NCBI RefSeq assembly: GCF_963921235.1
Contig: NC_086107.1
Location: 105,588,001 to 105,652,000, forward strand
Source: Mobula hypostoma
Taxonomy: Eukaryota
DNA length: 64,000 nucleotides
Direction: 5' to 3'
The position numbers and the translations under genes are program-made. The notes below the pieces were generated by a model. The model was given only the letters and a program-made list of their open reading frames with translations. It did not search any database and had not been told where the DNA came from. This document shows, piece by piece, positions 1 to 63,247 of the stretch; the stretch's first letter is position 1, and the number at the start of each line of letters is the position of its first letter.

Positions 1-309
1 GCGAGTGAGAGTTTTCCCCTGGAGGTGAGACAGGTGTCTATGGATCCAGGTTGGTGTCCACCCAAACTTGTCAGCTTCAACTCAGCTGAGCCTCCCACAC
101 CAAGGAACCTTTGTCGGGGATGATGTTGTCCCTCTCTCACACACTCCACTCTCCTGTCTGCTCAGATTCAGGAACAAGGCTCAGAGTGTTGGGGTTTCCA
201 GCTAAGGCCAATGGTTACCCACGGATTCCCAGGGTCATTAGTACAATCGTCAATGGATTGTTCACCAGAGAATGTTACAGCAAGAGATTGAAATCATAAA
301 TGTTGATAC

Positions 310-345
310 CTCGAGCTTCAGAGTGACTATTTCTTTCTGTAGAAT
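310..345 (-). CDS. Type-C exon: [12 protein letters not shown]
   Basis: ttccag|36 nt|gtatca. Confidence 0.7.
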
Positions 346-45300: not shown

Positions 45301-48300
45301 GAATCTGGAAGAGGCAGATAAAGAAATCAATTCACGAATCACAAGGCTTTCTATTTCCCATCCATTGCACTCTTTTAAACTCCACCCGTTCCGCTTTTAC
45401 GACATATCCCAGTGACGTATTGTTGACAGGTCAGCAGACATACCTTTAGTGTCTGGCCCACTCTCATTCTCGGTAGAGTCTGAAACATAAAGGGAGAGAA
45501 TTTCAGTTTCCCGAGCACACCGTCAGCTACTCAAACATTTCTCAGAGTCCCATTCCCCCTGTGGACACCGAGACATTGCACTCTTTGAGGAAACTTCCCC
45601 CTCCTTCCCTGTGGGATCTCAGGATCATTGAGGATCTTACAGTAATGTTCCTGGTCCTGGTGTGAAACGCAAGCTCTGACTTCATCAGGCCGACCCCTCG
45701 TTAACGACACCTCTCGTGAAGCAATGTTTACGCTTCGTCTCTTTACAAAAGGGAATTTCCAGACTGTTCCTTCTTCCGGATAGTTTCAACCTCCCAATCA
45801 TCCCCATGCATCACTGATTCACCTTCTCCAGGGCCTCAGATCCGTGATTTTTGCACGGACCCCTTGGTGAATGGTAGGGGGTCCATGGCATTAAAAAAAG
45901 GCTGGGAGCCCCTTTGCGAGAGAGAGCAGCTCTCTGCCCTACGTCCGTGCTTGCAAACCCAGTTCAATCCAGGCTAATCAACTTTCAGTCAGATAACTGA
46001 TTAAAGATTATGATTATTGTTTTTAATCATAAGATAATTGTTTATTATCCTAGTAATAGGGTGCTACAGTAGCATGGTGGTCCTCCAGGTTTGGGGGTTC
46101 AGCTCAGGGATGACAACCCTGACTGGTGAAACAAAACTGTTACGGCAACAGCAATGAAGAATCCTTCTACATCTGAGTGTGACGGTATTCCTGAGTCTCC
46201 ACCCGGGACTTGCAAGAGGGACAGTAGTAAAAATTGAGAGGGAGCCACTGACACGATGAAGGAAGGCCTGAACACCGTCAGAGACAGAGGACCTTCATTG
46301 CTGCCCGAAACACCAGCGGCGTAACGGGCAGACAGAGGGTAGCGTGGTGGTTTGCATGACACTGTTACAGGTTGGGATGTTCCAGAGGTCAGAGTTCAAT
46401 TACAGCGCTATCTGTAAGGAATTTGCAAGTTCTCCTCATGACTGCGTGGGTTTCCCCCGGGTGCTCCGGTTTCCTCCCACAGTCCAAAGACCTACCAGTT
46501 AGTAGATTAATAGGTCTTTGTAAATAGCCTCCTGATTAGACTAGGGTTAAAAAGACGGGTTGCTGGGGGGTGCGGCTGCTTTGCGCTGTATCTCTAAATA
46601 AATTATTTATGATTAAAAATAAACTGTTAACTTTAATCCTAACAGTTAAAGAAGCCTGGACATGCTATTATAGAACTGATAACTGCTATCACACATGGTA
46701 ACAGTTCCAGGCATATTTATTTTTATTTGCACGATTTATTTTTATACTGAATTGACTCATTCTGGTTAATTTACACTTCCTTCCTGGATTTTCCCAATCC
46801 TTCAATCCAACTGCCTCAAGGCTAACCCTGCTGGTTTTCCATTTCACCATCCCGTTTCCCGGAGCATCCGTGTTCTTCTGAAATGATTTGTATTGGTTAT
46901 CCCTTTATTTTCTGCTTATTATTACAGCTAATTATTGTTACAGTTTCTTTTTCTTTCTATTATCATGTACTGCTTTGTACTGCTGCCGCAAAGTTAACAA
47001 TTTCACAACCTATGCCGGTGATATTAAACCTGATTCTATCACCTGTCTACTTCGAATGAGTTATGATCGCATCTCTCCACTTCTCTGTTTTCCCCCAACG
47101 CCATTTGCCGTCCTGTTTTCTCAAGAGCCCGTCTCCTCCTTTTCTCCCCACCAGAGTCTGTCTCCTTATTCCCATCGGGATCTTTATTGAAATTATTTGC
47201 CATTCACTGCCCTAGGGTAGTGTCAAGATCATGACAAGCTTGGTTTTACCATAAAACCAGGGCGAACCAAAAGGGTCAGACCAGTTACGCTCACAGATCT
47301 CGATTTTGCAGATGACGTAGTCCTGCTCTCTGACCAGATGGAGGAAGCACGGCAGCTACTGACAAAAGTGGAACTAGAATGCAATAAAGTTGGACTTCAC
47401 CTAAACGCTAAAAGGACAGAGTACATGGCGTTTAACTGCGACGAAGGTACTCTCAAGACCGTAGAGAATGATGCCATTAAGAAAGTCTTTGATTACAAGT
47501 ACCTCGGGTCAAGAATGATGAGTTCGGAGAAGGATATAAAGATACGGAAGGCGCTAGCGCGGAGGGCTATGAACGACATGAAGGAAATCTGGAAGTCGAA
47601 CCTGATCAGAGGGCTTAAAAAGAGGATTTTCGTAGCAGTCATAAAGTCCATTCTCACGTACGGATGCGAGACGTGGACACTCACCAAGACGATGCAAAAG
47701 TCTCTAGATGGTTGATATACACAAACGCTCTGGATGGCTCTTGACGTGAGTTGGCAACAGCACATGATGAACATCGAGCTCTATAACAACCTACCGATGC
47801 TCACCACTAAAATCGAGGCGACTAGCAGGGCACTGTCTACGCCACCCCGAGCTACCTGCCAGCCTAGTCATCATATGGGAGCCCAAGCACGGGAGGATGA
47901 ACCCTGGGCGCCCTCCCAAGACTATGGTCAACACGCTCCTAGAAGACAGCGGCGCGGCTAATGTAGATGAACTGAACACACTGATGAGGGAGAGGGAGAA
48001 GTGGAGAGTCCGTCATCGTGCCCGACGCCGGCCCCCTAGGCCTGAGTCGATGTAGTAGTAGCCCTAGGGTGATTGATATGATAATGGAGCCAGCTCCTGT
48101 ATGGTAGCGTAGTCTGCCCTGGGGCAAATGTTTGGATTTTATTTATTTAGCGATATCGTGCAAGGACAGGCTGTTCCGGCCCTTTGAGACGCACCACGCG
48201 GCTACCCACCGATTCAACCCTAGCCAAATCACAGGACAATTTACAATGAACAATTAACCTACGAACCGTAGTCTTTGGACTGTGGGAGGAAACCGGAGTA

Positions 48301-51300
48301 CCCGGAGGAAACCTGCGTGCGCACGGGAAGGAACAGATAAACTTGCTTGCAGAGGATGCTGGAATTGAACGCCGACCACAGGCGCCCTGAGCTGTAATAG
48401 CTTCGCGCTAACCGCCTCGCTACCGTTTCTGTTCTATATCCAGCCTGTTCACTGCTCCGCTGCCTGCCCCCGGCTCCACGCGGATTTGACGTGAAATACG
48501 CAGCTTTTTAACCCTCACAGTGCCAGCTCCCCTCCACACCAGCTCAGTCAATAATCCCCACACAAACCGTCGTCTTCTCTGGATCCGATCACTCTGATTT
48601 TCTGCTCGCCACCCTCTTTGGAACCTGAAAGCAAAACCAGTATTTGATCATAAAATGTGAAGAGTGTGTGGAAAGTTCAGTTTTAAAGTGCGTCTGTGTT
48701 CCCAGTCATATTCAAACGCTGTGTCCCTACTGATCTGACTCAGAGCGGGTGGGATTGTCCAGCTTTTTACCAGGTTACTACTAACTGAACCCCAGAGTCT
48801 CTGGGTCGAGTGGGTCTCCTACGCATTGATCTGAGATGCCTGGCTGCCGAGTTGGTGTCCTCCCAATGCATTAAGTTTTCCAGTCAACTCACAGACACGA
48901 GAAAGTCTGCAGAAGCTGGAAGCCCAAAGCAACAAGCACCTACAAAATGCTGGAGAAACTCAGCAGGTCAGGTAGCATCAATGGAAAAGAGTAGACTGGC
49001 AACGATTCGGGCCGAGACCCTTCTCGATAAGTTTCAAGGACCTTTTGGGAACTAGAATCAGGTCGGTTTGGAGGAGGACAAATCCCGACTCCAGCTCGTG
49101 GAAGGGAGTACAGGAATTAGATGCTGATACCCTGGGATTTCTGAATAGCCGATAGCGGATTATCAGATTTACTGTATGTAGAATGAACAGGAATAAACGT
49201 GTGCTGATATTTAAGTTTCATTCAAGTCTCCTTCCTGTCGGTCACCATAAACCAAAGGGGGATCTGGCCTTAGTTTTTGTATCCTCAAGGTTATTATAGC
49301 TGGGGATGGTAATGGGGGCAATCTCCCATTGCCTATTAAATCCTCCCAATGGCTTGCGCCTCAAATAGTCTCTGACAACCAAGTCCAGCTCCTGGCCTTT
49401 GCATGTGGCTTAGCAGAACAGTTTCTACTGACTGGAGAAGGGGCAAAGGCAGGTTTCTGGTGCCTTAAAGCCAATCACTTCCAGCAGTTGGGGAACATCA
49501 GCCGTGGTTGTAAGCTCATCTAGGAGAAGGAAAAACTCTGATCTGAAAGCCCTGCTGCCTTGAGGTTATATCCACTGATGGGGGAGGCTTCAGGAGTAAA
49601 CACCGAGGAAAAATCCAAAGTTGGAGTCCCTAAGGCCATCCTACGTTGAGTTCAACACCGACTGGCAACTCCTGCGACGCCGCTGGTTATTAACTGTATC
49701 AGTCCCTGCCGTTCCTTTGGATTCATCAGCTGCGTGGAGAGGGGGAGCTTGCCGCATGGGCCCTGGCTTGCGTAGACAGCTGGGATGCAACATCCATGGT
49801 TAACCCTGATTAACAGAGGACCTACACAGAGGCATTGGTGGCAAGTGTAGGGTGGTTCTGCCGAGCCTGTATAAAACTCTAGGATGGCAGCTTCTGGCCA
49901 ACGTCAGACACTTCACCTTAGCAAGACCATGTAGGACTTGTGGAGGGTACAGGAACAAGGATCTGGAATGGTTCCTGGGACAAAGGGTAAAGGTAGAAGG
50001 TCAGCCCGGAGAGAATGGGGTTGCTCTCCTTGGGGAGGCATTGGATAGAACATACCTAGATCATAACACTTTCTTTGGGGCAAACTGAAGGAAGCTGATC
50101 CTGGTAGCGGAAGATCTAAAGAGCAGGGGACACAGCTTCAAAATGGTGTGCAAAGATAGAAGGCATGTTTGTGGACCTCTGTTTGTACAGATCGTAGTTT
50201 TGATCTGAACGTGTCTGTCAATTAGTGCCCCGAACGAGGGATTGGGTTTGGGAACTGAGATAGAATAACATGCAGAGCTGTGGGTAACGGGATGGGGGTT
50301 GCTCTGTTAGAGCTGGCACAGACCTGATTGGCCAATTCTATGATTCTATGTTCTTACATGTTGGCGCGTGGCCAAGTGGTTAAGGTGTCAGTCCAGTGAT
50401 CTGAAGGTCGCTAGTTCGAGCCTCAGCTGAGGCAGCGTGTTGTGTCCTTGAGCAAGGCACTTAACCGCACATTGCCCTGCGACGACACCGGTGCCAAGCT
50501 GTATCGGCCCTAATGCCCTTCCCTTGGACAACATCGGTGGCGTGGAGAGGGGAGACTTGCAGCATGGGCAACTGCTGGTCTTCCATACAACCTTGCCCAG
50601 GCCTGTGCCCTGGAGACCTTCCAAGACACAAATCCACAGTCTCATGAGACTAATGGATGCCTATATACGTTCTTATATATCATTCTTACTTGTATTTTGT
50701 ACATCTTCTTCGCTATTACATTGCTCAACCATTCAGTGTGGGAGTGAACGTCACAGTCTATTTTTCACCTGGGTTGCTGCTTTGCATTGTGAATCTCTTT
50801 CCTAAATCTCATTCAATTTTTAGTTTTGCAAGAGCCCATGGCCTCCAGCTACCTCCCTACCTCCCCTACCCCTCAGTTCCTTCAGCACTGGGGGGTTCTT
50901 CCCTCGACCGGGCCTCCCCTAAACCAATTCCTTCTGCTTTGTATCTGGCCTTCCAGTCCCCGTTCTGTTGCTGGTATCCATGGATCGGATATCACGTACA
51001 TAAAGAGCTTGTTAATCCCCACTGACCCAGTCTATCCCATCGGTGGTGGGGAAACTGCTAGAGTCAGTTATCAAAGATGTGATAACAGCACATTTGGAAA
51101 GCGGTGAAATCTTCGGACAAAGTCAGCATGGATTTGTGAAAGGAAAATCATCTCTGACGAATCTCATAGAATTTTTTGAGGATGTAACTAGTAGAGTGGA
51201 TAGGGGAGAACCAGTGGATGTGGTATATTTGGATTTTCAAAAGGCTTTTGACAAGGTCCCACACAGGAGATTAGTGTGCAAACTTAAAGCACACGGTACT

Positions 51301-54300
51301 GGGGGTAAGGTATTGGTGTGGGTGGAGAATTGGTTGGCAGACAGGAAGCAAAGAGTGGGAATAAACGGGACCTTTTCAGAATGGCAGGCAGTGACTAGTG
51401 GGGTACCGCAAGGCTCAGTGCTGGGACCCCAGTTGCTTACAATATATATTAATGACTTGGATGAGGGAATTAAATGCAGCATCTCCAAGTTTGCGGATGA
51501 CACGAAGCTGGGCGGCAGTGTTAGCTGTGAGGAGGATGCTAAGAGGATGTAGGGTGACTTGGATAGGTTAGGTGAGTGGGCAAATTCATGGCAGATGCAA
51601 TTTAATGTGGATAAATGTGAAGTTATCCACTTTGGTGGCAAAAACAGGAAAACAGATTATTATCTGAATAACACACATCAAAGTTGCTGGTGAACGCAGC
51701 AGGCCAGGCAGCATCTGTAGGAAGAGGTGCGGTCAACGTTTCAGGCCGAGACCCTTCGTCAGGACTAACTGAAGGAAGAGTGAGTAAGGGATTTGAAAGT
51801 TGGAGGGGGAGGGGGAGATCCAAAATGATAGGAGAAGACAGGAGGGGGAGGGATGGAGCCAAGAGCTGGACAGGTGATAGGCAAAAGGGGATACAAGAGG
51901 ATCATGGGACAGGAGGTCCAGGAAGAAAGACAAGGGGGGGGACCCAGAGGATGGGCAAGAGGTATATTCAGAGGGACAGAGGGAGAAAAAGGAGAGTGAG
52001 AGAAAGAATGCGTGCATAAAAATAAGTAACAGATGGGGTACGAGGGGGAGGTGGGGCCTTAGCGGAAGTTAGAGAAGTCGATGTTCATACCATCAGGTTG
52101 GAGGCTACCCAGACGGAATATAAGGTGTTGTTCCTCCAACCTGAGTGTGGCTTCATCTTTACAGTAGAGGAGGCCGTGGATAGACATGTCAGAATGGGAA
52201 TGGGATGTGGAATTAAAATGTGTGGCCACTGGGAGATCCTGCTTTCTCTGGCGGACAGAGCGTAGATGTTCAGCAAAGCGGTCTCCCAGTCTGCGTCGGG
52301 TCTCGCCAATATATAAAAGGCCACATCGGGAGCACCGGACGCAGTATATCACCCCAGTCGACTCACAGGTGAAGTGTTGCCTCACCTGGAAGGACTGTCT
52401 GGGGCCCTGAATGGTGGTAAGGGAGGAAGTGTAAGGGCATGTGTAGCACTTGTTCCGCTTACACGGATAAGTGCCAGGAGGGAGATCAGTGGGGAGGGAT
52501 GGGGGGGACGAATGGACAAGGGAGTTGAGTAGGGAGCGATCCCTGCAGAATGCAGAGCGAGGTGGGGAGGGAAAGATGTGCTTAGTGGTGGGATCCCGTT
52601 GGAGGTGGCGGAAGTTACGGAGAATAATATGTTGGACCCGGAGGCTGGTGGGGTGGTAGGTCTGTTATTTGGGTGGGGTGGGGTACATCACACAGCATCC
52701 ACACAAACTAATTACCCAGTTTGGCGGGACCGAGGGCTGTTTCCCGAGACGGCAGCGAGCTGAGCGACCTTGAGGCTTGCCGGGGAGGGGGCGGGGGGCT
52801 ACACATGAATTATGGAAGGAATCTATTATGAATTATCAAAGAGCTTGACCAACATAGGGGCTGGTCAACCACCTCACCAGGGAGAGGACATCAACCCCAA
52901 TTGCTCCTCTATAATAGACTCCCAGACTGCGCAATCCCCAGAACTGGGGCAGTCCATCAGCTAACTCCCCATACCTAAGCGTCTCGTGGTGGACTGTGGT
53001 CCAAATTGTTATTTCTCTTGTAATTTGATCTTCTTTATGCTTGTTTACATGCTTATAATCAGCTGTTTGTCTGTAAACATTCAGTCGATTTTCAATCATC
53101 TGCAGCATAGCTGGCTCTGTGCTTTCTTTCTTCCTCTGTGAGCCTTAATCGAGACTGTCTTTGTTGTCTCACCAGCAATTCTTATCAGAGAAGATTTCCT
53201 TATAAGACCATAAAACATAGCAGCAGAATTAGGCCATTTGGCCCACCAAGTCTGCTCTGCCATTTCATCATGGCTGATCCAATTTTCCTCTCAGCCTCAG
53301 TCTCCTTCCTTCTCCCCTTATCCCTTCATGCCCTGACCAGTCAAGAATCTATCAACCTCTGCCTTAAATATACATCAAGACTTGGCTTCCACAGTCGCCT
53401 GTGGCAAAGAATTCCACAGATTCACCACTCTCTGGTTAAAGGAACTCCTCCTCATCCCCGTTCTAAAAGGACACCCTTCTACTCTGAGGCTGTGTCCTCT
53501 GGTCTTGGACTCCTCCACTATAGGAAACATCCTTTCCACATCCACTCTATCGGCCACCTTGAACCGGTTTTCAGTATAAAGAGAGGCCACGAGGCAGGTT
53601 CTCAGTTAGAGTGAGCTAGTTACGGTTAGAGTTAGTTCCCAGTTGCTGTGGTTCACTGATATTCCTTTAGTGAAATGTTTGTAACCACATGACTTGACTT
53701 CCAAAGAGCCATCTGGGCGATATCATCTCCAAATCCAACACTAGCTTAGGGTGGGATTAGAGTCATAGAGCTATACAGTACTGGAAAGGGTCTTTTGCTC
53801 ATGATATCAATGGTGATCTTTGTGCCTTTATTTGAGAGGGCCTCTGATGGCTGGGGTCTACCATGGTTATTGCGTTCCAGCAAGCCAGGGCAAGTGCAAT
53901 ATAAAGAACAAGCTGTTTATTTATTTATTGTGATATAGCGCAGAATAGACCCTTCCTCCCCTCGAGCCGTGCTGCCCGGAAATCCCCGATTTAACCCTGG
54001 CCTAATCATGGGACAATTTACAATGACCAATCAACCTACCAACCGGTACGTCCTTGGACTGTGGGAGGAAACCGGGGCGCCCACGTGGTCACGGGGAGAA
54101 CGTACAAACTCCTTACAGGCAGTGGCGGGAATTGAACCCTGGGCGCTGGCACTGTAAAGCGTTGTGCTGACCACTGCACTACCGTGCCTATATGCTACTG
54201 CCCATGCAGAAGGCTCCCCCCCTCCACGCAGCTGATCAATCCAAAGGAACGGCAGAGACCGATACAGTTTGGTACCGGTGGCGTCGCAGGAGTTGCCAGT

Positions 54301-57300
54301 CAGCGTTGATCTCAATGTAGGACTGCCTTAGAGACTCCAGCTCTGGATTTTTCCCTCGGCGTTTACCCTCGGAGCCTTCCCCATGAGTGGGTATAGCCGC
54401 AGGGCAGTGAAGGTTTGAAATCAGAGTTTTCCTTCTCCGAGATGAGCTGCCAACCACAGGTGACGAGACCCATCTGTCTGAAGTGACCGGTTTTAAGGTG
54501 CCAGTAAGCCGCCTTTGCCCCTTCTCCTGTCAGTAGAAATGGTTCCGCCGGGCTTAGTAGCTAAGCCACGCGTGAAGTCCAGGAGCTGGACTTGGTTGTC
54601 AGAGGCTGTTTGAGTTGTACGCCATTGGGAGCATTTAATAGGTGGTGGGCGCATATCCCCACTACCTCCCCTGGCAATGACAACCTTGAGGAACTTGCCT
54701 ATGTGCTGTGAGGAATATATCCTTCTGATCCTTGTGTCTAAATGCCTCTTGTGCATTATAGTTGTATCTGATTCCACCACAGCCCCGGCAGCATGTCCCA
54801 GAGATCAGTGACTCTGTTAAGAAGCCATCCTCCCTCAGGTCCACATAAGCCCCTCTCCGCTCAACTCCACCCTATGCCTGAGACACAAGAGGTTGCAGGT
54901 GCTGGAATCGGGAGCAATGGACAACCTGCTGGAGGGATTCAACGGGTCGAGCAGCGCCTATCGGGGCAGGGGGAGAGGAATTGTCGACGTTTCAGGCTGA
55001 AACTCTGCATCAGGACTGGGCTGCCATCAGGCTCGACCCTCTGAGCTCCTCCAGCAGATTGTTAAACCTACGTGCGCTTGTTTCTCATATATCACTGGAA
55101 AGAGATTCTGATGTTCTACCCCCTCTGTTCCTCAACCTGTACTCTTTCATCTTAGCTTTATCAAAACATACCAGAGGCCACAGCCTCAGAAGGTGTCCTT
55201 TTAGAACAGAGGTGAACAGGAATTCCTTTAGCCAGAGAGCGGTGAATCTGTGGAATTCATTGCCACAGGTGGCTGTGGAGGTCAAGTCATTGGATATAAT
55301 AGTTAAGGCAGAGGTTGATAGGTTCTTGACTGGTCAAGGTATGAAGGGATACGGGGAGAAGACAGGAGATTGGGGCTGAGAAGGAAAATGAATGAGCCAC
55401 GATGAAATGGCGGAGCAGACTCGATGGGCCAAATGGCCTCATTCTGCCCCTATATTTTATGGTCTTATGGTCTAATACAGAGAAATGTGTCATTTGTGTC
55501 AACGCCCAACACGATCCGGATCTGCGCCCTGGGCAGCCTGCAAGTGACACCAACATAGCATGCCCACAACTCAGTACCCCTAACCCATATGTCTCTGGAA
55601 TGTGGAGGAAACCAGAGCACCTGGAGGAAACCCTCTCGGTCAAGGGAAAAGGTACAGACTCCTTACAGCGGCAAGAATTGAAACCCAATCGCCAATGGCT
55701 GGAACTGTAGTCACGTTACACTAACCAATTCTTTACCTTGCCAGCCTTAAAATACCACTTAGCCGCCTTTTCACCGAGTAAAATAATCCAAACCTATCCG
55801 AAACTCTTTCCACTCTAGAGAACATTCTGCTAAACCCTCTCTATACCCTCTATACCCTATATCAAGCAGGAAGATTGGACAATGTGATCAATGAAATGGA
55901 AAGACTAAAGATTATCATGGGAATTAGCGAAGTTTGTTGGATAGGTGCTTGAACATGTCAGATTAGAAATAATACACTAGTTCACTCTTGTGGAACATCC
56001 TATCCTAATGGAGTAGGAATTCTTATGGATGAAAACATGGCAAAAAGTGTCTTAGAATATTGGGCAAAATCAGAAAGAATGCTCCTTGTTAGATTCAGAG
56101 GACAACTATTTGATTTAGCAATTATACAGGTATATGCACCAACAACAGATGGAACAAATGAAGATATAGATAAATTCTATGAAGAGCTTGAACAAGCAAA
56201 GAATGGATGCAAATCTCAAGATACTGTTACTGTCATGGGAGATCTAAATGCTAAAGTTGGACAAGGTGCTGATGGAAATAAAAATAGGAAAATTTGGACT
56301 AGGGAAAAGAAATGAAAGAGGTGAGAAATGGGTAGAATGGTGCAAGATGAATAATCAGGTCATTATGAATACCTACTTTAAAAACCATCCAAGACGCTTG
56401 TGGACCTAGAAAAGTCCAGGTGATGACACTAGAAATCAAATTGACTTTATTACTATAAACTAAAGATTTAGAAACTCAGTGACTCAATGCAAAACATATC
56501 CAGCTGCAGACTGTAATAGTGACCATAACCCAGTAGTATGTCATGTAAGAGTAAAACTTTAAAAACTAAAGAAGCAAAAACCCGAACAATCCCTTGACTA
56601 CTTGCAATTAAGTAAAGAAGAAAACTTAAGACAAAAATTTACAATTGAGGTAAGGAATAGATTTCAAAGTCTAGAAATAGAATCTGTTGAAGATGATAGC
56701 AATCCTGTAGAAATGAAATTTAACTCTCTAAAGGATGCCTTGGTAGAATCAGCAAAGTCAGTGATTCCTAAAAGAAAAATGCACAAAGAATAAATGGATG
56801 ACAGATGAAATCAAAAATCTAATGGAAGAAAGCAAATCCTATAGAATGTAAGTCCTTAGATAAAAAAGTTAAAAGCTTAGGTCAAAAAGCCAAAGAAGAA
56901 TGGTTAAACCAGGAATGTAAGCAAACAGAAAGAATCCCTATTACTGATCCAAAAAGGTTACATCAACAAATCAAGAATATCACTGGTAAAAAGCTCCTCT
57001 GTTCTTCAGGTGGATGTTTGAAAGCAAAGGACAGTACCATTATCATGAAAAAAGATGAGATTATGAACATACGGACAGAGTATATTCAGGAATTGTCTGA
57101 AGACGATCGAGGCAAAAAACCAGAAATTAAGAAAAGCATTGAAAGTCCGAGTATTTTAAAATCTGAAGTTCGTAATGCAATAAATAAGATGAAGAAAGGA
57201 AAGGCAGCAGGTCCTGATAAATTAGTAATAGAACAAATTATTGCCCTTGAAGATTATGGAATTGAAAAACTTACTGATTTAATCAATGACATTTATGAGA

Positions 57301-60300
57301 CTGGAATAATACCAGAAGAGATGAAAAAAAAAATCAGTAGAAGTAGAATGTGAATTACATAGGACCATAAGTTTAATGCGTCATATCACCAAGATACTTC
57401 TAAGAATTTTGATGACAAGAGCTAAAAGTAAGATACAAGCTGAAATAGGTAAAGAACAATGTGGCTTTGTGAAAGACAAAGGTACAAGAACGCAATATTG
57501 ATGTTAAGGATACTATCAGAACGAGCTATTCAAGTGCAAAAAGATTTGTTTGTTTGTTTTATCGACTACACAAAAGCATTTGATAAAGTGAAGCACAATA
57601 AGTTATTTGAAATATTACAGAAAACTCTAGATCTGGATTCGAAAGACCTCCGCCTAATCAGAAATCTGTACTGGGAACAAACTACCGCTGTAAGAATAGA
57701 TGGAGAAGTGAGTCAGTTTATGAAAATCAAGAGAGGCGTTAGACAATGGTGTGTTTTCTCCCCTGATTTATTTAATGCGTACAGTGAAACAATATTACAA
57801 AAAGTAAGAGACATCTTGGGAATCAAAGTTGGCGGTGAAAACATCAATGATTTCAGATATGCAGATGACACTGTGTTAATTGCAAGTACGGAGGAAGAAC
57901 TACAAAACTTAATTGATATAATTGTTGAAGAAAGTGCAAAAATGAGTCTATCTATCAATTGCAAAAAGACAAAATGCATGGTGATATCCAAAAAGAAGGA
58001 GAATCCTATCTGCAGGCTGAGAATAAATGGGGAAGACATAAAACAAGTAAAGAACTTTTGCTACTTAGGAGGCTGGGTGACATCAGATGGCAGGTGTGAC
58101 TTGGACATCAAAAGAAGAATAGGGATGGCAAAAGACACCTTTACGAGAATGAAGAGTATACTGACCAATACTAAACTAGGCATGACAACCCGCCTCAGAG
58201 TACTGAAATGTTACGTTTATCCAGTTATGTTATATGGCTCAGAATGTTGGACAATATCTAGTAATACGAGGAAACGAATTGTAGCAGCAGAAATGTGGTT
58301 TTTGAGGAGGATGCAAAGAACATCATGGACGAAACGAATATCTAACAAGGATGTCATGAACAGAGCAAACACAAAAAGAGAAATAATGTATGAGATCATG
58401 AAAAGGCAATGTAACTTCATTGGACATGCGATTAGGAAAGAGGAGTTAGAATGAATGGTAATTATGGGAAAGATTGAAGGGAAGAAAGCAAGAGGAAGAC
58501 AAAGACAAATGATGATGAAGACAGCAGCCAGAGAACTGGAAATGAATACCAATGAATTGATCCACTTGACCCGAAACAGGAGTGTGTGGGCCATGGCAGT
58601 CAAAGCTCAAACTGGGCACGGCACCTGATGATGATGATGATGATGATAATACTCTCTGCACAAAGAGACTTCGAAATTTTAAATAAATTATTCAATGATA
58701 TATTTCGAGGAGGGGAGGAGAGAAATGATCACATGACCAAAAGCAAGGTGACTGATTGGATGAGGGTGTTACCAAGCTCCAACGGGAGGAGGAGGCTTGG
58801 GGGAACTGCGTCACTGAGCTGAACAGTCTCACCCCAGAGAGATAGACAGATTGCACAGTCTCAGCTCAGTCAGGCTCAGGGTTCAGATGTACGAGCAAAA
58901 AAAACATAAAAAATGGGATCAGGAAAAGGCCATCCGGCCCATCGAGCCTGCTCTGCTATTTAATAAGATCATGGCTGATCTGGCAGTGGACTCAGCTCCA
59001 GCTACCTGGCTTTTCCCCAGAGCCCCTTAATTCCCCTGCTATGGAAGTATCTACCCAACTGTGTCTTCAATATGTTAGATAAGGTAGCCGCTACTCCTTC
59101 CTTGGGCAGAGAATTCCACAGTTTCAACAGTCTGTAGGAAAAGCAGTTTCTCCTCATCTCTCTCCTGAATCTATTCCCTTGAATCTTGAGATTATGTTCC
59201 CAAGTTCTAGTCTGACTTATTAGTTGATACAGCTTTCCTGCCTCTATTGTATCTACCCCTTTCAAAATGTTTGTATAAGAACTCTTCTCATTCTTCAGAA
59301 CTCCAGCAAGTGTAGTCCCAGGCAACTCAATCTCTCCTCAGAGGTTAACCCCCTCACCTCCGTAATCAACCTCGCGGTTCTCCACTAAACCACTTCCACA
59401 GCCAGTATATCTTTTCTCTAGTAAGGAGACCAGAGATGCACGCAGTACTCCAGGTGTGTCCTCACCAGTACCCCTGTACAGTTGCGGCATAAATCTCTCT
59501 GCTCTTAAGTTCGACCGCTCCAGCATTGAAAACCAGCTTCAAATGGTATGCTGGATATTCATGTGGACGGGTCAGATTCTTTCTTATCAGGAGGGTCCTA
59601 GCCTGTCCATAAAGTGAACCCCGCCTCGCCTATCACAGGGCAGAAATAGGCATCCTGCTGGGGCGAAGATATCAGCCTATTCTCTACACCTGAATGCTAC
59701 CCAGCCCCAACCAACTCTGGAGATCAGTGAATTCAAACAGAGTTGAAAGCACGGTTCATCACTTCAACCTTGATGCTGCCAGTGAACTAGAAAGCAGACA
59801 AGGTGCACGAGCCAAGGCTCGTCATTAAGGAGATGCTCTGCTGCTCCGCAGGTTCCAACCTGTGGCATTCCGGCTTTCTGGGATCACCCTCCTATTTTCC
59901 AGCACCCCCCGCAACCCCCGCTGCTACTCAATATAACACCAGCACGACAAGGACCCATCTGGTATCAAAACTGTATGATATTGTTGGAGGAACACGGCAA
60001 CTAACATAGACTATAGAACAATACAGCCCTTCGGCCAACAATGTTGTGCCAAAATTTTAATCTGCTCTTGAGATCAATCTAGCCCTTCCTTCCTACATAT
60101 CATCCATGTGCCCATCTAAGCGTTTCGTTAATGTCCTAATGTATCTGCCTTTACCACTGCCCCTGGCAGGGTGTCCCATACACCCACCACTCCCTGTGTA
60201 AACATCATCTGCGTAACACCCCAGACCTCCGTCTCCCGGGGGTCCGACATTGAGGAAGGGGGGTGCACTGAACAGTGCAACGGTAAGTGGATACATTGAC

Positions 60301-61534
60301 CATCACTGGGACCCTCCTCAGAGGGGTGGGGGGGGGGGAATGAGAGCAGAACATTACTTTCGGGAGGGAGGGGAGTGACCAGAAGCTTCACGTTGTAGCT
60401 TTATCAGTTGCGGTAGATGAACAGCGAAATGCAACACAGGATTTATTAGGAACCTGCTGCCTCACTGGCTGGGTCACTGCCAACTCAGTTAGCAGTGCCA
60501 GGAGATACTGGAGCATCTTGCACAAGGGCAGGTGAAAGGCATGCCAGTAAGGACTTGCACTCTCTCTTGACTATGTCTCTGTCTCTCTCTTTTGCCAACC
60601 TGTCTATTTATCTGTCTGTCTCCCTCTCCTACCTCCATCTGTCCTTCTCTCTCTCTCTGCTCATCTCACTTGTCACCATCTGCTCTTCTCTCTCTCTTTG
60701 CCTTTCAGTCTGTTTGGCTCTGTCTCTCTGTATCTTATCCTCCCCTCTGCCTCCGTGTAACAACGCAGAAAAGGAAGCTGCAACATGGACAAAATGCAGA
60801 CAGAAAGATATTAGATCTGTCAGTCTCTATTCGTCTCTTACTTCCTCTTGCCCTGTCCAATTCTACCTCCCTCTCTCTTTTACTCAGTCTCTCTGTCTAT
60901 CTCTGTCTTGTACTGTCTGACTCTCTATCACTATTCCTCATTTACTCTCCCTCTGTATATACTGTATTCAGTGGCCACTTTATAAGTACCTCTTGTACCT
61001 AACAGAGTGGCCTCTGAGTGTATGTTTGTGGTCGTCTGCTGCTGTAGCCCGTCCACTTCAAGGTTCAATGTGTTGTTCATTCAGAGATGCTCTTCTGCAC
61101 ACCGCTGTTGCTATTTGAGTTACTGTCACCTTCCCATCAGCTTGAACCAGTCTGGCCATTCTCCTCTGACCTCTCTCGTTAACAAGGCATTTTCACCAAC
61201 AGAACTGCCCTTCACTGGATATTTTTTTGTAGTTTTTCTCACCATTTTCTGTAAGCTCTAGAGACTGCTGTGCGTGAAAATCCCAGGAGATCAGCAGTTT
61301 CTGAGATACTCAAACCACCCCATCTGGCACCGACAATCATTCCACAGTCAAAGTCACTTCCCCATTCTGATGTTTGGTCTGAACAACAACCGAACCTCTT
61401 GACCTTGTCTGCATGCTTTTATGCATTGAGTTGCTACCAAATGATTGACTGATAAGATATTTGCATTTGTGAGCAGGTGTACAGGAGTACCTAATAAAGT
61501 GGCTACTCAGTGTGTCAGGAAAATGTTTTTGGAA

Positions 61535-61571
<37 letters not shown>

Positions 61572-63050
61572 AGATTTGCAAACTGACTCCTTCCACTTGT
61601 TCAGGTCCAGCACTACACCAGCCTTCCAAACCCAGCGAGAAAAGCCCTGTAAGTGGCAGAATGGGACTTTTCTGCTCGCTGTTACAGGGAACGAATAGAC
61701 TGATCAAGGAATCTTCTAATTACATTTAAATTGCAAACATACCAACCTCCAGTAGCAATTAGTCCTCAGTTATTGGCAGTAATAGCAAAAATATTCAGAT
61801 AGAAATCTTAAATCAGAATAGAATCGCAACAGGACACCGTGAAAGTTGAAGGAAGTAATGATACTGACCGTCTCTTTCATTAGAGTTTCTGAAGATCACT
61901 GCAAAAGACAGAGAAATACCGTGTCACAATGACGCTTCCAGTGAGATCGATCGATAACGACCAGTATCAACAGACCAATTTACCATGGAGGGATTTTCAG
62001 AATCTTTCTGACTGTTTCTGGGTTTTTCTTGCCTTGTTTTTCCTCACCCTCTGCCCCATTATTTGAACGTGAGAGGAGAACGGGGAGGTCTCCGCGTCCG
62101 TGCAGTGATGCTGGTGCCTTGCAGCATCTCCAGCACATCTGCAGTACCCACTGACTCGGGCTTCCTGCAACCATACGCTCCTGCCCTATTGCCTTTGGCT
62201 GGCGATCCATCCGATCTTGCTGTGGGTAAGATCGAGGATGGCACCCCCTCCCCGGAACCTTCTACAGACGCCCCTCCGACTGGGTAACGTTTGGGAAGAA
62301 ATTCGAGGAGGTTTAAACCTCTCCCCATGCCAGAGATCCTCACACTCCCTCCCCTCCCCAAGGGCTGCGGTGAAAATATGTGGCAGAGGTTTCCGGGTTC
62401 CAGTGACGGATCACGGGGTCGCTGCGAGGGTCGGTTGGGTTGCCGCAGCCTTGTGTAGTCGTAAGGTCGCCGAATCAACGCAGGGTCATCGTCAGGTAGT
62501 TACAAGGACTCACAACCATTGCAGGGATGGTGTAAGATCCCAATGTCACCGCAGGTGGTCACAAGGTCACGCCTGGGGTTTGCCGTAAGGCGTCTCCACC
62601 CCAGGCGGACCCGCAGGACGGCCGGGGTGCCGTGAGGGAGGGCAGGGGAAATGCGCCGCAGCCCCACGAGAACGGAGCGCAGGTTGCTGCTGCAGCGGGC
62701 AGGGTGGGGAGCGCCAGGCTGCGAGAGAACTCTGCCCGCTCTGCCCGCTCATCTTAAACCCGTCTTTGCAAATGCGCAGCTGGGATTTTTTTCCCCCTGA
62801 GAGTGCGAGGAAGCCAGGATGAATTAAGCGAATGATCCTACATCACGAAATGACTGCGCACTGAAAATCTTCCTTGGATTTTGCGTCTCCCAGGTAGGGG
62901 TAAGGTGCGAGTTAAATCCTTCCATGCTACAGATCTTTAATGCGGTGCTAACCGGACCAGGTTAACTCCTCTGCTCCGAGGAGACAGCCTACCTCCGCAG
63001 TAGGTATGGACCACCAGTCCGAGGAGAGCGAACAACAGCAGGCTTCTCAT
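310..63050 (-). CDS. Multi-exon gene (36 intact + 3 disabled micro-exons; 3' end outside window) for a secreted Ser-x-Glu-rich repetitive phosphoprotein, possibly MGP/osteocalcin family
   Basis: ATG plus 19-aa hydrophobic signal peptide ending at a phase-1 GT donor. All intact downstream exons are AG...GT bounded, 30/36/45/57 nt long and open in the phase-1 frame. Intact exons total 1699 nt (566 codons + 1 nt) with no stop; the frame runs off the window start. Confidence 0.85.
1364..1420 (-). CDS. Type-A exon: [19 protein letters not shown]
   Basis: ttccag|57 nt|gttcgt. Confidence 0.7.
1962..1997 (-). pseudogene. Type-C exon copy with lost acceptor (AG to GG)
   Basis: Plus strand reads gaatccgg where sister copies read gaatctgg; coding part intact. 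Confidence 0.65.
3058..3114 (-). CDS. Type-A exon: [19 protein letters not shown]
   Basis: tttcag|57 nt|gttcgt. Confidence 0.7.
3656..3691 (-). CDS. Type-C exon: [12 protein letters not shown]
   Basis: ttccag|36 nt|gtaaca. Confidence 0.7.
4752..4808 (-). CDS. Type-A exon: [19 protein letters not shown]
   Basis: tttcag|57 nt|gttcgt. Confidence 0.7.
5350..5385 (-). CDS. Type-C exon: [12 protein letters not shown]
   Basis: ttccag|36 nt|gtatca. Confidence 0.7.
5745..6089 (+). mobile_element. CR1-type LINE 3' fragment inserted in one array unit
   Basis: Absent from sister units; ends in a GGTTAT-like repeat tail; accounts for most of the longer 2056-bp period. Confidence 0.65.
6807..6863 (-). 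CDS. Type-A exon: [19 protein letters not shown]
   Basis: tttcag|57 nt|gttcgt. Confidence 0.7.
7406..7441 (-). CDS. Type-C exon: [12 protein letters not shown]
   Basis: ttccag|36 nt|gtatcg. Confidence 0.75.
8535..8591 (-). CDS. Type-A exon: [19 protein letters not shown]
   Basis: tttcag|57 nt|gttcgt. Confidence 0.75.
9132..9167 (-). CDS. Type-C exon: [12 protein letters not shown]
   Basis: ttttag|36 nt|gtatcg. Confidence 0.75.
10035..10091 (-). CDS. Type-A exon: (D/N)[18 protein letters not shown]
   Basis: tttcag|57 nt|gtacgt. Confidence 0.75.
10460..12260 (+). mobile_element. Degraded CR1-like LINE 3' portion, interrupted by a SINE (~10750-11005), the minisatellite and a Penelope-type terminal fragment (~11750-12120)
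   Basis: Similar to other CR1 copies in the window (GLDRVDVER and RGHSLRI motifs, 3' UTR). Confidence 0.65.
11016..11430 (+). repeat. 32-bp minisatellite (~13 copies) derived from CR1 ORF2
   Basis: Unit aaggagagatgtgctggtcctggagagggtct matches the CR1 [10 protein letters not shown] motif and continues into CR1 3' sequence. Confidence 0.85.
12914..12958 (-). CDS. Unique type-D exon: [15 protein letters not shown]
   Basis: atgcag|45 nt|gtgagt; a second in-frame donor (gtttta) would extend it to 12896 (63 nt). Confidence 0.65.
13419..14590 (+). mobile_element. V-SINE-like element split by a nested CR1 LINE fragment (~13561-14465)
   Basis: ggtgctccagtttcctcc...ccaaagac V-domain-like core; insert translates [17 protein letters not shown] resumes and ends in (AAAT)n. 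Confidence 0.7.
14839..14895 (-). CDS. Type-A exon: [19 protein letters not shown]
   Basis: tttcag|57 nt|gtttgt. Confidence 0.8.
15323..15737 (-). mobile_element. Rex1/Babar-type LINE 3' end
   Basis: [19 protein letters not shown]...[12 protein letters not shown]-terminal motif; (TCTAA)n tail; apparent TAGTA target-site duplication. Confidence 0.75.
15802..15837 (-). CDS. Type-C exon: [12 protein letters not shown]
   Basis: ttccag|36 nt|gtatgg. Confidence 0.8.
15983..16018 (-). CDS. Type-B exon: [12 protein letters not shown]
   Basis: tttcag|36 nt|gtagtt. Confidence 0.8.
16956..17012 (-). CDS. Type-A exon: [19 protein letters not shown]
   Basis: tttcag|57 nt|gtttgt. Confidence 0.75.
17973..18008 (-). 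pseudogene. Disabled type-C exon [11 protein letters not shown]
   Basis: Acceptor AG changed to AT, and CGA changed to an in-frame TGA stop. Confidence 0.8.
18156..18184 (-). pseudogene. Disabled type-B exon (29 nt, frameshifting)
   Basis: 7 nt shorter than the other B copies; most of the pyrimidine tract is deleted. Confidence 0.75.
18670..19620 (-). mobile_element. Unclassified interspersed repeat (related fragments near 20915, 23255, 38720)
   Basis: Shared tttattatcaaag...acaaccctga...cagacagccacgaaacaa block at four sites. Confidence 0.5.
21139..21452 (+). mobile_element. tRNA-derived SINE with CORE-like domain
   Basis: A/B-box-like head, gtccttgagcaaggcacttaa core, (TAA)n tail, ATAATAAAGTAG repeated on both flanks; homologs at 40100-40421 (-) and 50360-50666 (+). 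Confidence 0.75.
21763..21819 (-). CDS. Type-A exon: [19 protein letters not shown]
   Basis: tttcag|57 nt|gtttgt. Confidence 0.75.
24210..24245 (-). CDS. Type-C exon: [12 protein letters not shown] (weak GAG acceptor)
   Basis: ttcgag|36 nt|gtattg. Confidence 0.55.
24393..24428 (-). CDS. Type-B exon: [12 protein letters not shown]
   Basis: tttcag|36 nt|gtacag. Confidence 0.7.
25491..26122 (-). mobile_element. Penelope-like element 3' fragment (GIY-YIG C-terminus)
   Basis: GDRFAEH...VAAHFN...[20 protein letters not shown]. Confidence 0.8.
26372..26660 (+). mobile_element. tRNA-head SINE nested in a Penelope-type fragment
   Basis: ggtggcgcaatg...gggttcaaaacc A/B-box-like head; related copy at ~39716-39922. 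Confidence 0.6.
27455..28060 (-). mobile_element. CR1-like LINE 3' fragment
   Basis: [15 protein letters not shown]...ERVQRKF...[14 protein letters not shown]. Confidence 0.75.
28235..28291 (-). CDS. Type-A exon: [19 protein letters not shown]
   Basis: tttcag|57 nt|gtttgt; differs from the array copies only by synonymous changes. Confidence 0.8.
28431..28829 (+). mobile_element. Solo LTR (399 bp) with 5-bp TSD
   Basis: TGTAATGA...TCATGACA termini; TATCA at 28426-28430 and 28830-28834; internal AATAAA; truncated copy at 21932 to ~22160. Confidence 0.75.
29608..29664 (-). CDS. Type-A exon (1.55-kb array): [19 protein letters not shown]
   Basis: tttcag|57 nt|gtttgt. Confidence 0.8.
31158..31214 (-). 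CDS. Type-A exon (1.55-kb array): [19 protein letters not shown]
   Basis: tttcag|57 nt|gtttgt. Confidence 0.8.
32709..32765 (-). CDS. Type-A exon (1.55-kb array): [19 protein letters not shown]
   Basis: tttcag|57 nt|gtttgt. Confidence 0.8.
34268..34324 (-). CDS. Type-A exon (1.55-kb array): [19 protein letters not shown]
   Basis: tttcag|57 nt|gtttgt. Confidence 0.8.
35820..35876 (-). CDS. Type-A exon (1.55-kb array): [19 protein letters not shown]
   Basis: tttcag|57 nt|gtttgt. Confidence 0.8.
37068..37103 (-). CDS. Type-C exon: [12 protein letters not shown]
   Basis: ttccag|36 nt|gtattg. Confidence 0.75.
37250..37285 (-). CDS. Divergent type-B exon: [12 protein letters not shown]
   Basis: tatcag|36 nt|gtagtt; SxE motif lost. 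Confidence 0.6.
37764..38715 (-). mobile_element. CR1-like LINE 3' portion (RT end and 3' UTR)
   Basis: [10 protein letters not shown] and [13 protein letters not shown]...[14 protein letters not shown]. Confidence 0.85.
40100..40421 (-). mobile_element. tRNA-derived SINE (same family as 21139)
   Basis: Reverse-complement match to 21142-21440; (CTATA)n tail. Confidence 0.75.
40642..40698 (-). CDS. Type-A exon: [19 protein letters not shown]
   Basis: tttcag|57 nt|gtttgt. Confidence 0.8.
40790..41370 (-). mobile_element. Degraded Penelope-like fragment
   Basis: [17 protein letters not shown]...EATLR. Confidence 0.65.
41596..41900 (-). mobile_element. RTE LINE 3' end with expanded (GAT)n-type tail
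   Basis: Reverse-complement match to ~58432-58648. Confidence 0.8.
42238..42273 (-). CDS. Type-C exon: [12 protein letters not shown]
   Basis: ttccag|36 nt|gtacgg. Confidence 0.75.
42417..42452 (-). CDS. Type-B exon: [12 protein letters not shown]
   Basis: tttcag|36 nt|gtaggt. Confidence 0.75.
43478..44036 (+). mobile_element. CR1-like LINE 3' fragment
   Basis: [26 protein letters not shown]...TRGHSLRI. Confidence 0.8.
44156..44212 (-). CDS. Type-A exon: [19 protein letters not shown]
   Basis: tttcag|57 nt|gtttgt. Confidence 0.8.
45269..45304 (-). CDS. Type-C exon: [12 protein letters not shown]
   Basis: ttccag|36 nt|gtattg. Confidence 0.8.
45444..45479 (-). CDS. Type-B exon: [12 protein letters not shown]
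   Basis: tttcag|36 nt|gtatgt. Confidence 0.8.
47219..48060 (+). mobile_element. 5'-truncated RTE-clade LINE with 10-bp TSD
   Basis: DLDFADD RT motif, [14 protein letters not shown]; (TAG)n tail; GCCCTAGGGT at 47209-47218 and 48061-48070. Confidence 0.85.
48568..48624 (-). CDS. Type-A exon: [19 protein letters not shown]
   Basis: tttcag|57 nt|gtttgt. Confidence 0.8.
49300..49830 (+). mobile_element. Non-autonomous interspersed repeat (inverted copy at ~54195-54690), possibly RTE-related
   Basis: Reverse-complement homology between the two loci. Confidence 0.5.
50360..50666 (+). mobile_element. tRNA-derived SINE (same family as 21139)
   Basis: ggcgcgtggccaagtggttaagg...gttcgagcc head and the same body. 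Confidence 0.75.
51042..51669 (+). mobile_element. CR1 LINE reverse transcriptase fragment
   Basis: [32 protein letters not shown]; internal stop. Confidence 0.9.
51670..52660 (-). mobile_element. Penelope-like element with GIY-YIG endonuclease region
   Basis: [30 protein letters not shown]... Confidence 0.85.
55860..58648 (+). mobile_element. Near full-length, disrupted RTE-clade LINE (APE endonuclease + RT)
   Basis: [17 protein letters not shown] and SDH endonuclease motifs; [25 protein letters not shown]; (ATG)n tail; stops and frameshifts. Confidence 0.9.
58905..59510 (-). mobile_element. CR1-like LINE 3' fragment
   Basis: Degenerate TRGH...RRNCFS..LWNSLP motif and 3' UTR. Confidence 0.7.
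60965..61512. mobile_element. Tc1/mariner-type non-autonomous DNA element
   Basis: Imperfect TIRs cagtggccactttataagtac ... gtacctaataaagtggctactcagtg; no transposase ORF. Confidence 0.65.
61538..61568. repeat. (TG)n microsatellite
   Basis: Read directly. Confidence 0.9.
61869..61898 (-). CDS. Exon 2 (30 nt): [10 protein letters not shown]
   Basis: tttctctgtcttttgcag|TGATC...AGACG|gtcagt; strong pyrimidine tract, phase 1-1, contains S-N-E. Confidence 0.75.
62993..63050 (-). CDS. Exon 1 coding part: signal peptide [19 protein letters not shown]
   Basis: ggaaATGAGAAGCCTGCTGTTG...TACTGCGGAG|gtaggc; 58 nt, phase-1 donor; basic n-region, Leu-rich h-region, small residues near the end. Confidence 0.85.
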
Positions 63051-63128
63051 TTCCGCGCGTCCTTGCAGCAGGGAGGATGCCGTGAGCCGGAGACCGGGAA
63101 TGCAATGATCTGCAAGGGCAGACCTGGC

Positions 63129-63247
63129 TTTTTATGTCGTTCCTTCTGACTGTCGGAGTGAGTCATGTGATGCTGTGGCTTCTACCATCTGCCCACAGGA
63201 TGGACCAGAGGTGACCACAGCTTCCAAAACCGACCCCCCGCCCCCCA
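63129..63247 (-). promoter_or_regulatory. Putative proximal promoter: TATA-like CATAAAAA (63129-63136), AP-1 TGAGTCA (63159-63165), E/M-box TCATGTGA (63163-63170), Runx-type TGTGGTC (63213-63219), GC box (about 63234-63247)
   Basis: Motifs read directly, clustered 80-200 bp upstream of the ATG at 63050. Function is inferred. Confidence 0.55.

Follow-up and report, generated by a model that had tools for sequence, protein, structure and literature searches.

Osteocalcin (Bgp) is a textbook four-exon gene with a precursor of about 100 residues. In the family that it forms with matrix Gla protein (Mgp), cleavage of the signal peptide, gamma-carboxylation by GGCX, cleavage by furin and the action of Fam20C on S-x-E serines are well established; the Gla domain of Mgp is not known to be released by furin. 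The gene described here begins in a window of 64,000 nucleotides from Mobula hypostoma (NCBI RefSeq assembly GCF_963921235.1, contig NC_086107.1, positions 105,588,001 to 105,652,000), a species with a genome of 3.48 Gb. It is almost certainly the single Bgp gene of this genome, with its 5′ end in the window, and is composed of a signal exon, a short exon 2, an array of repeated micro-exons of four types (modules A, B, C and N), a docking exon and a Gla exon, giving up to 74 exons against the four of bony-fish Bgp. The window was examined together with flanking DNA, 200 kb on the left and 400 kb on the right; coordinates are window positions, and values below 0 or above 64,000 are contig positions minus 105,588,000.

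Closest described systems

The small-spotted catshark has a Bgp of 13 exons with imperfect repeats, considered possibly catshark-specific and with no functional domain predicted, while Mgp2 has lost its phosphorylation site and the batoid Bgp entries are docking and Gla fragments only (PMC8006282, available part). An extra Mgp paralog with an enlarged phosphorylation region, which the original prediction had mentioned for cartilaginous fishes, is contradicted by this account, where the repeated exons belong to Bgp. The catshark gene shares with that of the ray the signal exon, a start resembling exon 2, A and B modules immediately ahead of the docking exon (in the cDNA), a closely similar Gla exon and the Erp27/Ddx47 locus. 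It differs in exon number (13 against up to 74), in its repeats, which are mostly exon-2-like whereas A, B and C are amplified in the ray, and in its furin site, altered to K-K-S-K-R and canonical here (PMC8006282, available part). Since the repeats are also present in this ray, they are not catshark-specific.

Two further sharks are represented by automatic database models. XP_043535381.1 of the bamboo shark Chiloscyllium plagiosum ("osteocalcin 2-like isoform X13", 397 aa) has the same A, B, C and N modules between signal and Gla, with A modules 74–84% identical to those of the ray, and XP_067830332.1 of Heptranchias perlo (osteocalcin-like, 167 aa) has A, B and C modules before docking and Gla. 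Isoform X13 holds about 21 modules and 22 S-x-E against 70 and 121 in the ray, a gap that may shrink as longer isoforms among X1–X12 are possible; its number indicates that many Chiloscyllium isoforms are annotated. Exon 2 of the ray resembles exon 2 of catshark and bamboo-shark Bgp.

Two other systems are the teleost osteocalcin 2 (OC2/bgp1b), whose prodomain is one enlarged exon, and the acidic SCPP/SIBLING proteins (DMP1, DSPP, SPP1), whose exons are phase 0 and derived from SPARCL1. The zebrafish OC2 prodomain has about 100 residues of low-complexity Ser/Asp/Ala in a lineage separate from this Bgp, and the enlarged OC2 prodomain, serine-rich and acidic, has been proposed to be phosphorylated and calcium-binding (as cited in the available part of PMC3517302). 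The SCPP/SIBLING proteins and chondrichthyan Spp2 have in common with the predicted ray product that they are secreted, rich in S-x-E and poor in Cys and aromatic residues; in cartilaginous fishes, Spp2 accumulated S-x-E, up to 21 (PMC13188829, available part).

Identity of the gene

A search past base 1 for a Gla exon, which had been suggested with the original prediction, led to the last exon of the gene, which ends 49.6 kb beyond base 1 (Table 1). This exon reads E-x-x-x-E-x-C-E with a second Cys and an osteocalcin-type C-terminus, without the C-terminal extension of an Mgp-type Gla exon. It matched ten osteocalcin sequences in the PDB (E 8e-8 to 2e-3), with MGP at just E 0.046, and its database homologs are shark osteocalcin-like proteins of 81–83% identity. 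It occurs once in the genome, and its local alignment score is 195–225 against chondrichthyan Bgp, compared with 64 against the ray's own Mgp1 and 45 against its own Mgp2. A tree (13 rows, 75 columns; bootstrap did not settle) placed it with chondrichthyan Bgp with support of 83/92.

The penultimate exon has the carboxylase docking pattern F-16, A-10 and V-6, in the usual numbering of these residues, followed by an R-P-R-R furin site; the A-N-x-F docking motif of Mgp is absent from it, the sequence being A-N-S-V. In a comparison by eye with the Pristis Bgp fragment, 1 of 19 residues is different in the docking stretch and 2 of 28 in the Gla stretch. The order of a signal exon, phase-1 propeptide exons, a phase 1-2 docking exon and a Gla exon is likewise the architecture of Bgp. 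Counting against the assignment are the shortness of the tree (75 columns) with its unsettled bootstrap, and the Pfam results: the local Pfam copy assigned no family to the Gla exon, with 0 families also for the docking exon and for query P0002, and the Pfam Gla domain PF00594, run over the genome, gave 19 matches with none at the Bgp locus, most of them reading like what are presumably clotting-factor or PRRG-type Gla exons.

The original prediction had proposed an MGP-family paralog, which was right in the Mgp/Bgp family and wrong in the member. An extra Mgp paralog with a multiplied phospho-exon would accord with the likeness of module A to exon 2 of the ray's Mgp1 (7 of 10 residues) and with the position of the gene in the Mgp cluster. 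However, the exons at the end of the gene are of osteocalcin type and include a furin site, Mgp1 and Mgp2 are both found as separate genes, and within 200 kb to the left of the window the gene's strand holds no other Gla-core motif. This paralog is thus exceedingly improbable, and refuted unless the repeats are spliced to an unseen Mgp-type last exon.

Exon structure and splicing

The signal exon and exon 2 were found as predicted from the window alone, the former a 58-nt phase-1 exon with the translation given at that time and the latter a 30-nt S-x-E exon with AG/GT ends (Table 1). A seed scan found 75 micro-exon copies after exon 2, spanning 48624 to −43723, and the same seeds matched nothing on the plus strand across these 264 kb; the dozens of D-S-x-E exons announced by the original prediction are therefore real, and its count of more than 35 holds for the window (36 copies, 34 of them intact) and falls short by about half for the gene. 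The copies comprise 34 A (57 nt, one of 51), 10 B (36 nt), 29 C (36 nt) and two N (45 and 42 nt). All are phase 1-1 with lengths divisible by 3, so that duplication, loss and skipping preserve the frame and the length can be tuned by unequal crossing-over and splicing. AG/GT ends and the absence of a stop characterize 70 of the 75; the five broken copies are at 18008 (C; acceptor AT and an in-frame stop), 1997 (C) and −17604 (acceptor GG in both), −36699 (acceptor GC) and −40981 (donor AT).

A scan with an acceptor profile gave 72 sites, of which two were uncatalogued and neither of these convincing, against one on the control strand, which indicates that the catalogue is near complete. Candidates of 27 nt in the 1.55 kb units and of 51 nt at 5735 were dropped for weak splice sites. 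The donors of A exons (e.g., at 35820 and 8535) are non-consensus in 32 of 33 A copies of 57 nt (GTTTGT in 15, GTTCGT in 17). Inclusion of A may be regulated through these weak donors.

Splicing was followed in contigs from four runs of one study (X1–X4), taken as RNA-derived solely from their GT-AG joints and compared over the 5′ and middle parts of the gene. GT-AG joints lie at exactly the predicted boundaries for at least 10 of the 73 predicted junctions (Table 1), including GTTTGT donors of A exons. A loose contig end at 9132 continues into an A-type exon, a C>A joint of the (C-A)n type, and A>A joining is weakly indicated. All four runs contain every sampled word of the Gla exon and 3′ untranslated region. 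Since the spliced contigs start variously at 63073–63146, the transcription start is not fixed.

It might be supposed that two genes are involved, one with the repeats and one with the Gla exons, or that the array was inflated by mis-assembly, as the joints observed do not reach from repeat to docking exon and tandem arrays are error-prone. The docking exon, however, opens in phase 1 with no convincing internal exon in the 4.4 kb scanned before it, and the shark homologs join C or B straight to the docking sequence, so that the link from repeats to Gla is predicted from phase, from the intervening sequence and from homologs. The region contains no N, and among the 16 (C-A) units none of 120 pairs is identical (identity 0.70–0.99). 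Both forms of this alternative are very improbable.

The introns of the gene hold a 32 nt minisatellite in 13 copies and a (TCA)n tract, at 11016–11427 and 41595–41708. Within the 13.2 kb intron 2, the stretch 56001–58000 has a GC content of 33% with strong skew and is likely a mobile-element remnant.

Origin of the repeats and selection

All 30 of the scored matches to an A exon, a lower bound on their number, fall within the Bgp gene. Two young blocks, one of 1.55 kb A units at 98% identity and one of (C-A) units, are flanked by old A-B-C triplets. Module A shares 7 of 10 residues with exon 2 of the ray's own Mgp1, matching at both ends (P ~2e-4 by shuffles), while exon 2 itself and modules B and C fall below significance in the same comparison. 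The Mgp1 exon is likewise phase 1, of 30 nt, and encodes D-S-x-E-S-x-E...D-D, and is likely homologous to module A; it is present in one copy, is kept in the mature protein and belongs to a separate gene. The Mgp-type phase-1 S-x-E phospho-exon is thus present here after the signal exon, and its sharing reflects family ancestry and not Mgp membership. The multiplication of such an exon, put forward by the original prediction, is likely correct in view of the match to module A, but took place in Bgp.

The ratio of nonsynonymous to synonymous substitution (dN/dS) was obtained from intact copies, with each cluster at 93% represented by a single copy, which left 13 of 32 for A, 9 of 10 for B and 11 of 25 for C; both N, the 51 nt A and the broken copies were excluded. 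It is 0.19 for A, 0.14 for B and 0.65 for C in pairs that are not independent and between which gene conversion is possible. Modules A and B are under purifying selection. Identity is 0.77–0.79 in exons, compared with 0.49–0.54 in the intron beside them and 0.43 at random. All 13 distinct A copies have S2 and E4 unchanged, and a neutral simulation gave 3.0 expected stops across these copies where none is present (P 0.027).

Predicted product

When the 74 intact exons are spliced in silico, they form a single open frame, 3,525 nt in length and drawn from 112,665 bp of DNA. The predicted precursor has 1,174 aa, which is an upper bound, made up of a signal peptide of about 19 residues, a propeptide of 1,102 and a mature part of 53. 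The predicted propeptide (~122 kDa, isoelectric point 4.97, one Cys) has 17.6% Ser, 296 D+E and 216 K+R, and contains 121 S-x-E against 29 ± 4.7 in 1,000 shuffles (maximum 49), together with 11 N-glycan sequons, 39 [D/E]-S-G and one R-G-D. In composition (S-x-E number, isoelectric point and single Cys), the predicted propeptide would fit an SCPP-like profile. All repeats are phase 1-1, not phase 0, and lie in the Mgp/Bgp locus. The likeness would therefore be convergent, given the phase-1 exons and the Gla C-terminus.

The R-G-D is carried by one of the 34 A copies (contig 105,553,911–105,553,967), possibly by chance, the others reading mostly R-E-D, Q-E-D or G-G-D. Most B copies (e.g., 45444–45479) contain N-E-S-G, in which an N-glycan sequon and an acidic S-G site overlap. 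The propeptide may accordingly also bear glycans or glycosaminoglycan, judging from such motifs.

The only R-x-[K/R]-R of the precursor is at the canonical furin position, which speaks against a polyprotein from which other convertases, acting at the basic pair of each A module, would release many short phosphopeptides. The conserved R-K or R-R of module A (among 13 distinct copies, 10 have the R and 11 the K) and a K-R-K in Heptranchias would suit such processing, but the pairs are mostly R-K followed by Ile, a residue disfavoured by convertases after a dibasic pair. We regard this polyprotein as improbable.

Proposed role of the propeptide

We consider it rather probable, from features of the predicted protein, that the gene is a Bgp with a giant furin-released propeptide, likely phosphorylated, that would modulate mineralisation; a functional phosphoprotein role of the propeptide, taken for itself, is of much the same, moderate probability. 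The signal peptide would take the precursor into the secretory pathway, where GGCX would gamma-carboxylate three Glu through the intact docking site, Fam20C would phosphorylate many of the 121 S-x-E sites, and furin would cut at the single R-P-R-R to yield a normal osteocalcin and an acidic propeptide of ~120 kDa. The freed propeptide of ~1,100 aa may then outlast secretion and, as a disordered polyanion, bind to calcium phosphate and have a modulating effect on mineral, by analogy with the acidic SIBLING/SCPP proteins or the teleost OC2 prodomain.

Several points weigh against this proposal. Phosphorylation, cleavage and survival of the propeptide are sequence-based predictions, and the propeptide is predicted to be a polyampholyte, with 216 K+R beside its 296 D+E; classic dentine phosphoproteins are more acidic. 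Module C is weakly constrained, and the absence of stops is significant for A alone (B 0.45, C 0.22). One X2 contig skips B at 42452, going from A (44156) into C (42273), and such skipping, together with the five broken copies, implies that the isoforms actually made may fall well short of 1,174 aa. Among the joints listed, none falls within the (C-A)n block or connects repeat>docking>Gla; the four runs belong to a single study, possibly the assembly's own source; and near-identical copies can be misplaced, as shown by one contig that was assigned to the wrong copy.

The dN/dS of C, the broken copies and the skipped exon would also fit a Bgp whose giant propeptide is a tolerated passenger, cut off and degraded, with a copy number that drifts by unequal crossing-over, a frame kept by the phase-1 exons and a mature osteocalcin that alone matters. 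The recent near-identical duplications (98% among the 1.55 kb units and up to 99% in (C-A)n) and the widely varying length of relatives (124, 167 and 397 aa) point the same way. Such a passenger is nevertheless rather unlikely, as the low dN/dS of A and B, the invariant S-x-E of A and the identity of A modules between this fish and the bamboo shark argue for selection on residues and not just on the frame. A functional module would still be compatible with a neutral copy number.

Locus and neighbouring genes

The neighbourhood of the gene, which the original prediction had proposed for checking, includes both Mgp genes upstream on the same strand (Table 1), and the order Erp27-Mgp2-Mgp1-Bgp-Ddx47 is the locus known from PMC8006282 (available part). 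The second of two candidate ERp27 exons had no PDB match. Mgp1 lies inside the cluster, between Mgp2 and Bgp. Batoid Mgp1 was reported to be off-locus (Amblyraja) or missing (Pristis), for which a possible translocation was proposed (PMC8006282, available part); because Mgp1 is in-cluster in this genome, such a translocation is not general among batoids. The Mgp1 Gla exon looks diverged, with a long branch in the tree, and no position was obtained for exon 3 of Mgp1.

Between Mgp1 and Mgp2, two identical Cys-containing reading frames lie 13.2 kb apart on the plus strand (contig ~105,789,500 and 105,802,700), which suggests local duplication of an element. A weak match to Wbp11, another marker of the Mgp locus, was found 450 kb beyond the gene (contig 105,084,679–105,084,807; E 0.015, over the cut-off).

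Table 1. Features of the Bgp gene of Mobula hypostoma, its splice joints and its neighbours.
Feature	Position	Strand	Description
Candidate core promoter	63129..63165	minus	AP-1-like heptamer 63159-63165, TATA-like box starting 63136; motif matches only
Bgp gene body, in-window part	1..63050	minus	continues past base 1
Bgp exon 1, coding part	63050-62993	minus	signal peptide, 58 nt, phase-1 GT donor
Bgp exon 2	61898-61869	minus	30 nt, AG/GT, 10 codons, phase 1-1, single S-x-E (S-N-E)
A-B-C triplets x3	37068..48624	minus	A 57 nt, B 36 nt, C 36 nt; 9 copies; seed scan
Tandem A exons x6	28235..35876	minus	five within recent ~98%-identical 1.55 kb units
Mixed copies x10	10035..24428	minus	order B C A c A B C A N A
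(C-A)n block, start	310..9167	minus	1.6-2.1 kb units, 11 in-window copies; extends ~19.9 kb past base 1
39 more micro-exon copies	contig 105,544,277-105,587,776	minus	outside window; 3 broken
Docking/furin exon	-48136 to -48211	minus	outside window; 76 nt, phase 1-2
Osteocalcin Gla exon	-49476 to -49614	minus	outside window; last exon, with stop
Joint exon 1>exon 2	62993/61898		4/4 runs
Joint exon 2>first repeat	first repeat at 48624		4/4 runs; across 13.2 kb intron
Joint A>B	48568>45479		3/4 runs
Joint B>C	45444>45304		3/4 runs
Joints	28235>24428 and 16956>16018		3/4 runs
Joints	15983>15837, 14839>12958, 12914>10091, 10035>9167		4/4 runs
Mgp1	exons 140513, 136372, ~131776; contig ~105,719,600-105,728,513	minus	separate gene, about 68-77 kb upstream of Bgp exon 1
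Mgp2	~391 and 384 kb; contig ~105.972-105.979 Mb	minus	separate gene, about 320 kb upstream
DDX47 exon	contig 105.499-105.502 Mb	plus	36-40 kb past Bgp stop, opposite strand; E 1.5e-32
ERp27-like exon	contig 106.025 Mb, ~+437 kb		upstream; E 1.4e-6

Significance

Repeated Bgp exons are already known from the 13-exon catshark gene (PMC8006282, available part) and from the 397-aa bamboo-shark database model; what is new is a gene on this scale, with up to 74 exons over 112.7 kb, and the 5′ portion that the batoid Bgp fragments of PMC8006282 (available part) lack. A precursor about 12 times longer than usual would surprise specialists, although the 13-exon catshark form is published. The open-access literature, judged from listings, yielded no Bgp of such size, subscription journals being outside the scope, and the available part of PMC8656109 contains nothing on Bgp. 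Long protein relatives were found neither with query P0002 against proteins of 294–2,000 aa nor with the 397-aa Chiloscyllium protein against those of 696–2,000 aa, and a representative protein library gave 47 matches, the longest of 298 aa; these blanks are weak, because the 397-aa Chiloscyllium protein itself stood behind a 92-aa representative. Longer isoforms may be present in RefSeq, and the gene could already be in the genome's own annotation.

In the catshark, bgp is upregulated in mineralising vertebrae (PMC13188829, available part). A broader scenario is offered here tentatively, as a possibility on the doubtful side: sharks and rays might have made their own large acidic matrix phosphoprotein from the throw-away propeptide of osteocalcin, a single gene yielding a small Gla protein and a DMP1/DSPP-like polyphosphoprotein. 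Micro-exon duplication and splicing would tune the length of the latter, which goes from tens of residues in the elephant shark to ~1,100 here. In rays, this polyphosphoprotein might be a major regulator of dentine, denticle or tesseral mineral, in the role of the expanded SCPP family of bony vertebrates. The locus is a clean example of how micro-exons can be amplified with the frame preserved, in blocks that can be dated. It also yields peptide targets for phosphoproteomics and offers a conserved S-x-E-rich candidate for the acidic phosphoproteins that mineralise the teeth, scales and tessellated cartilage of cartilaginous fishes.

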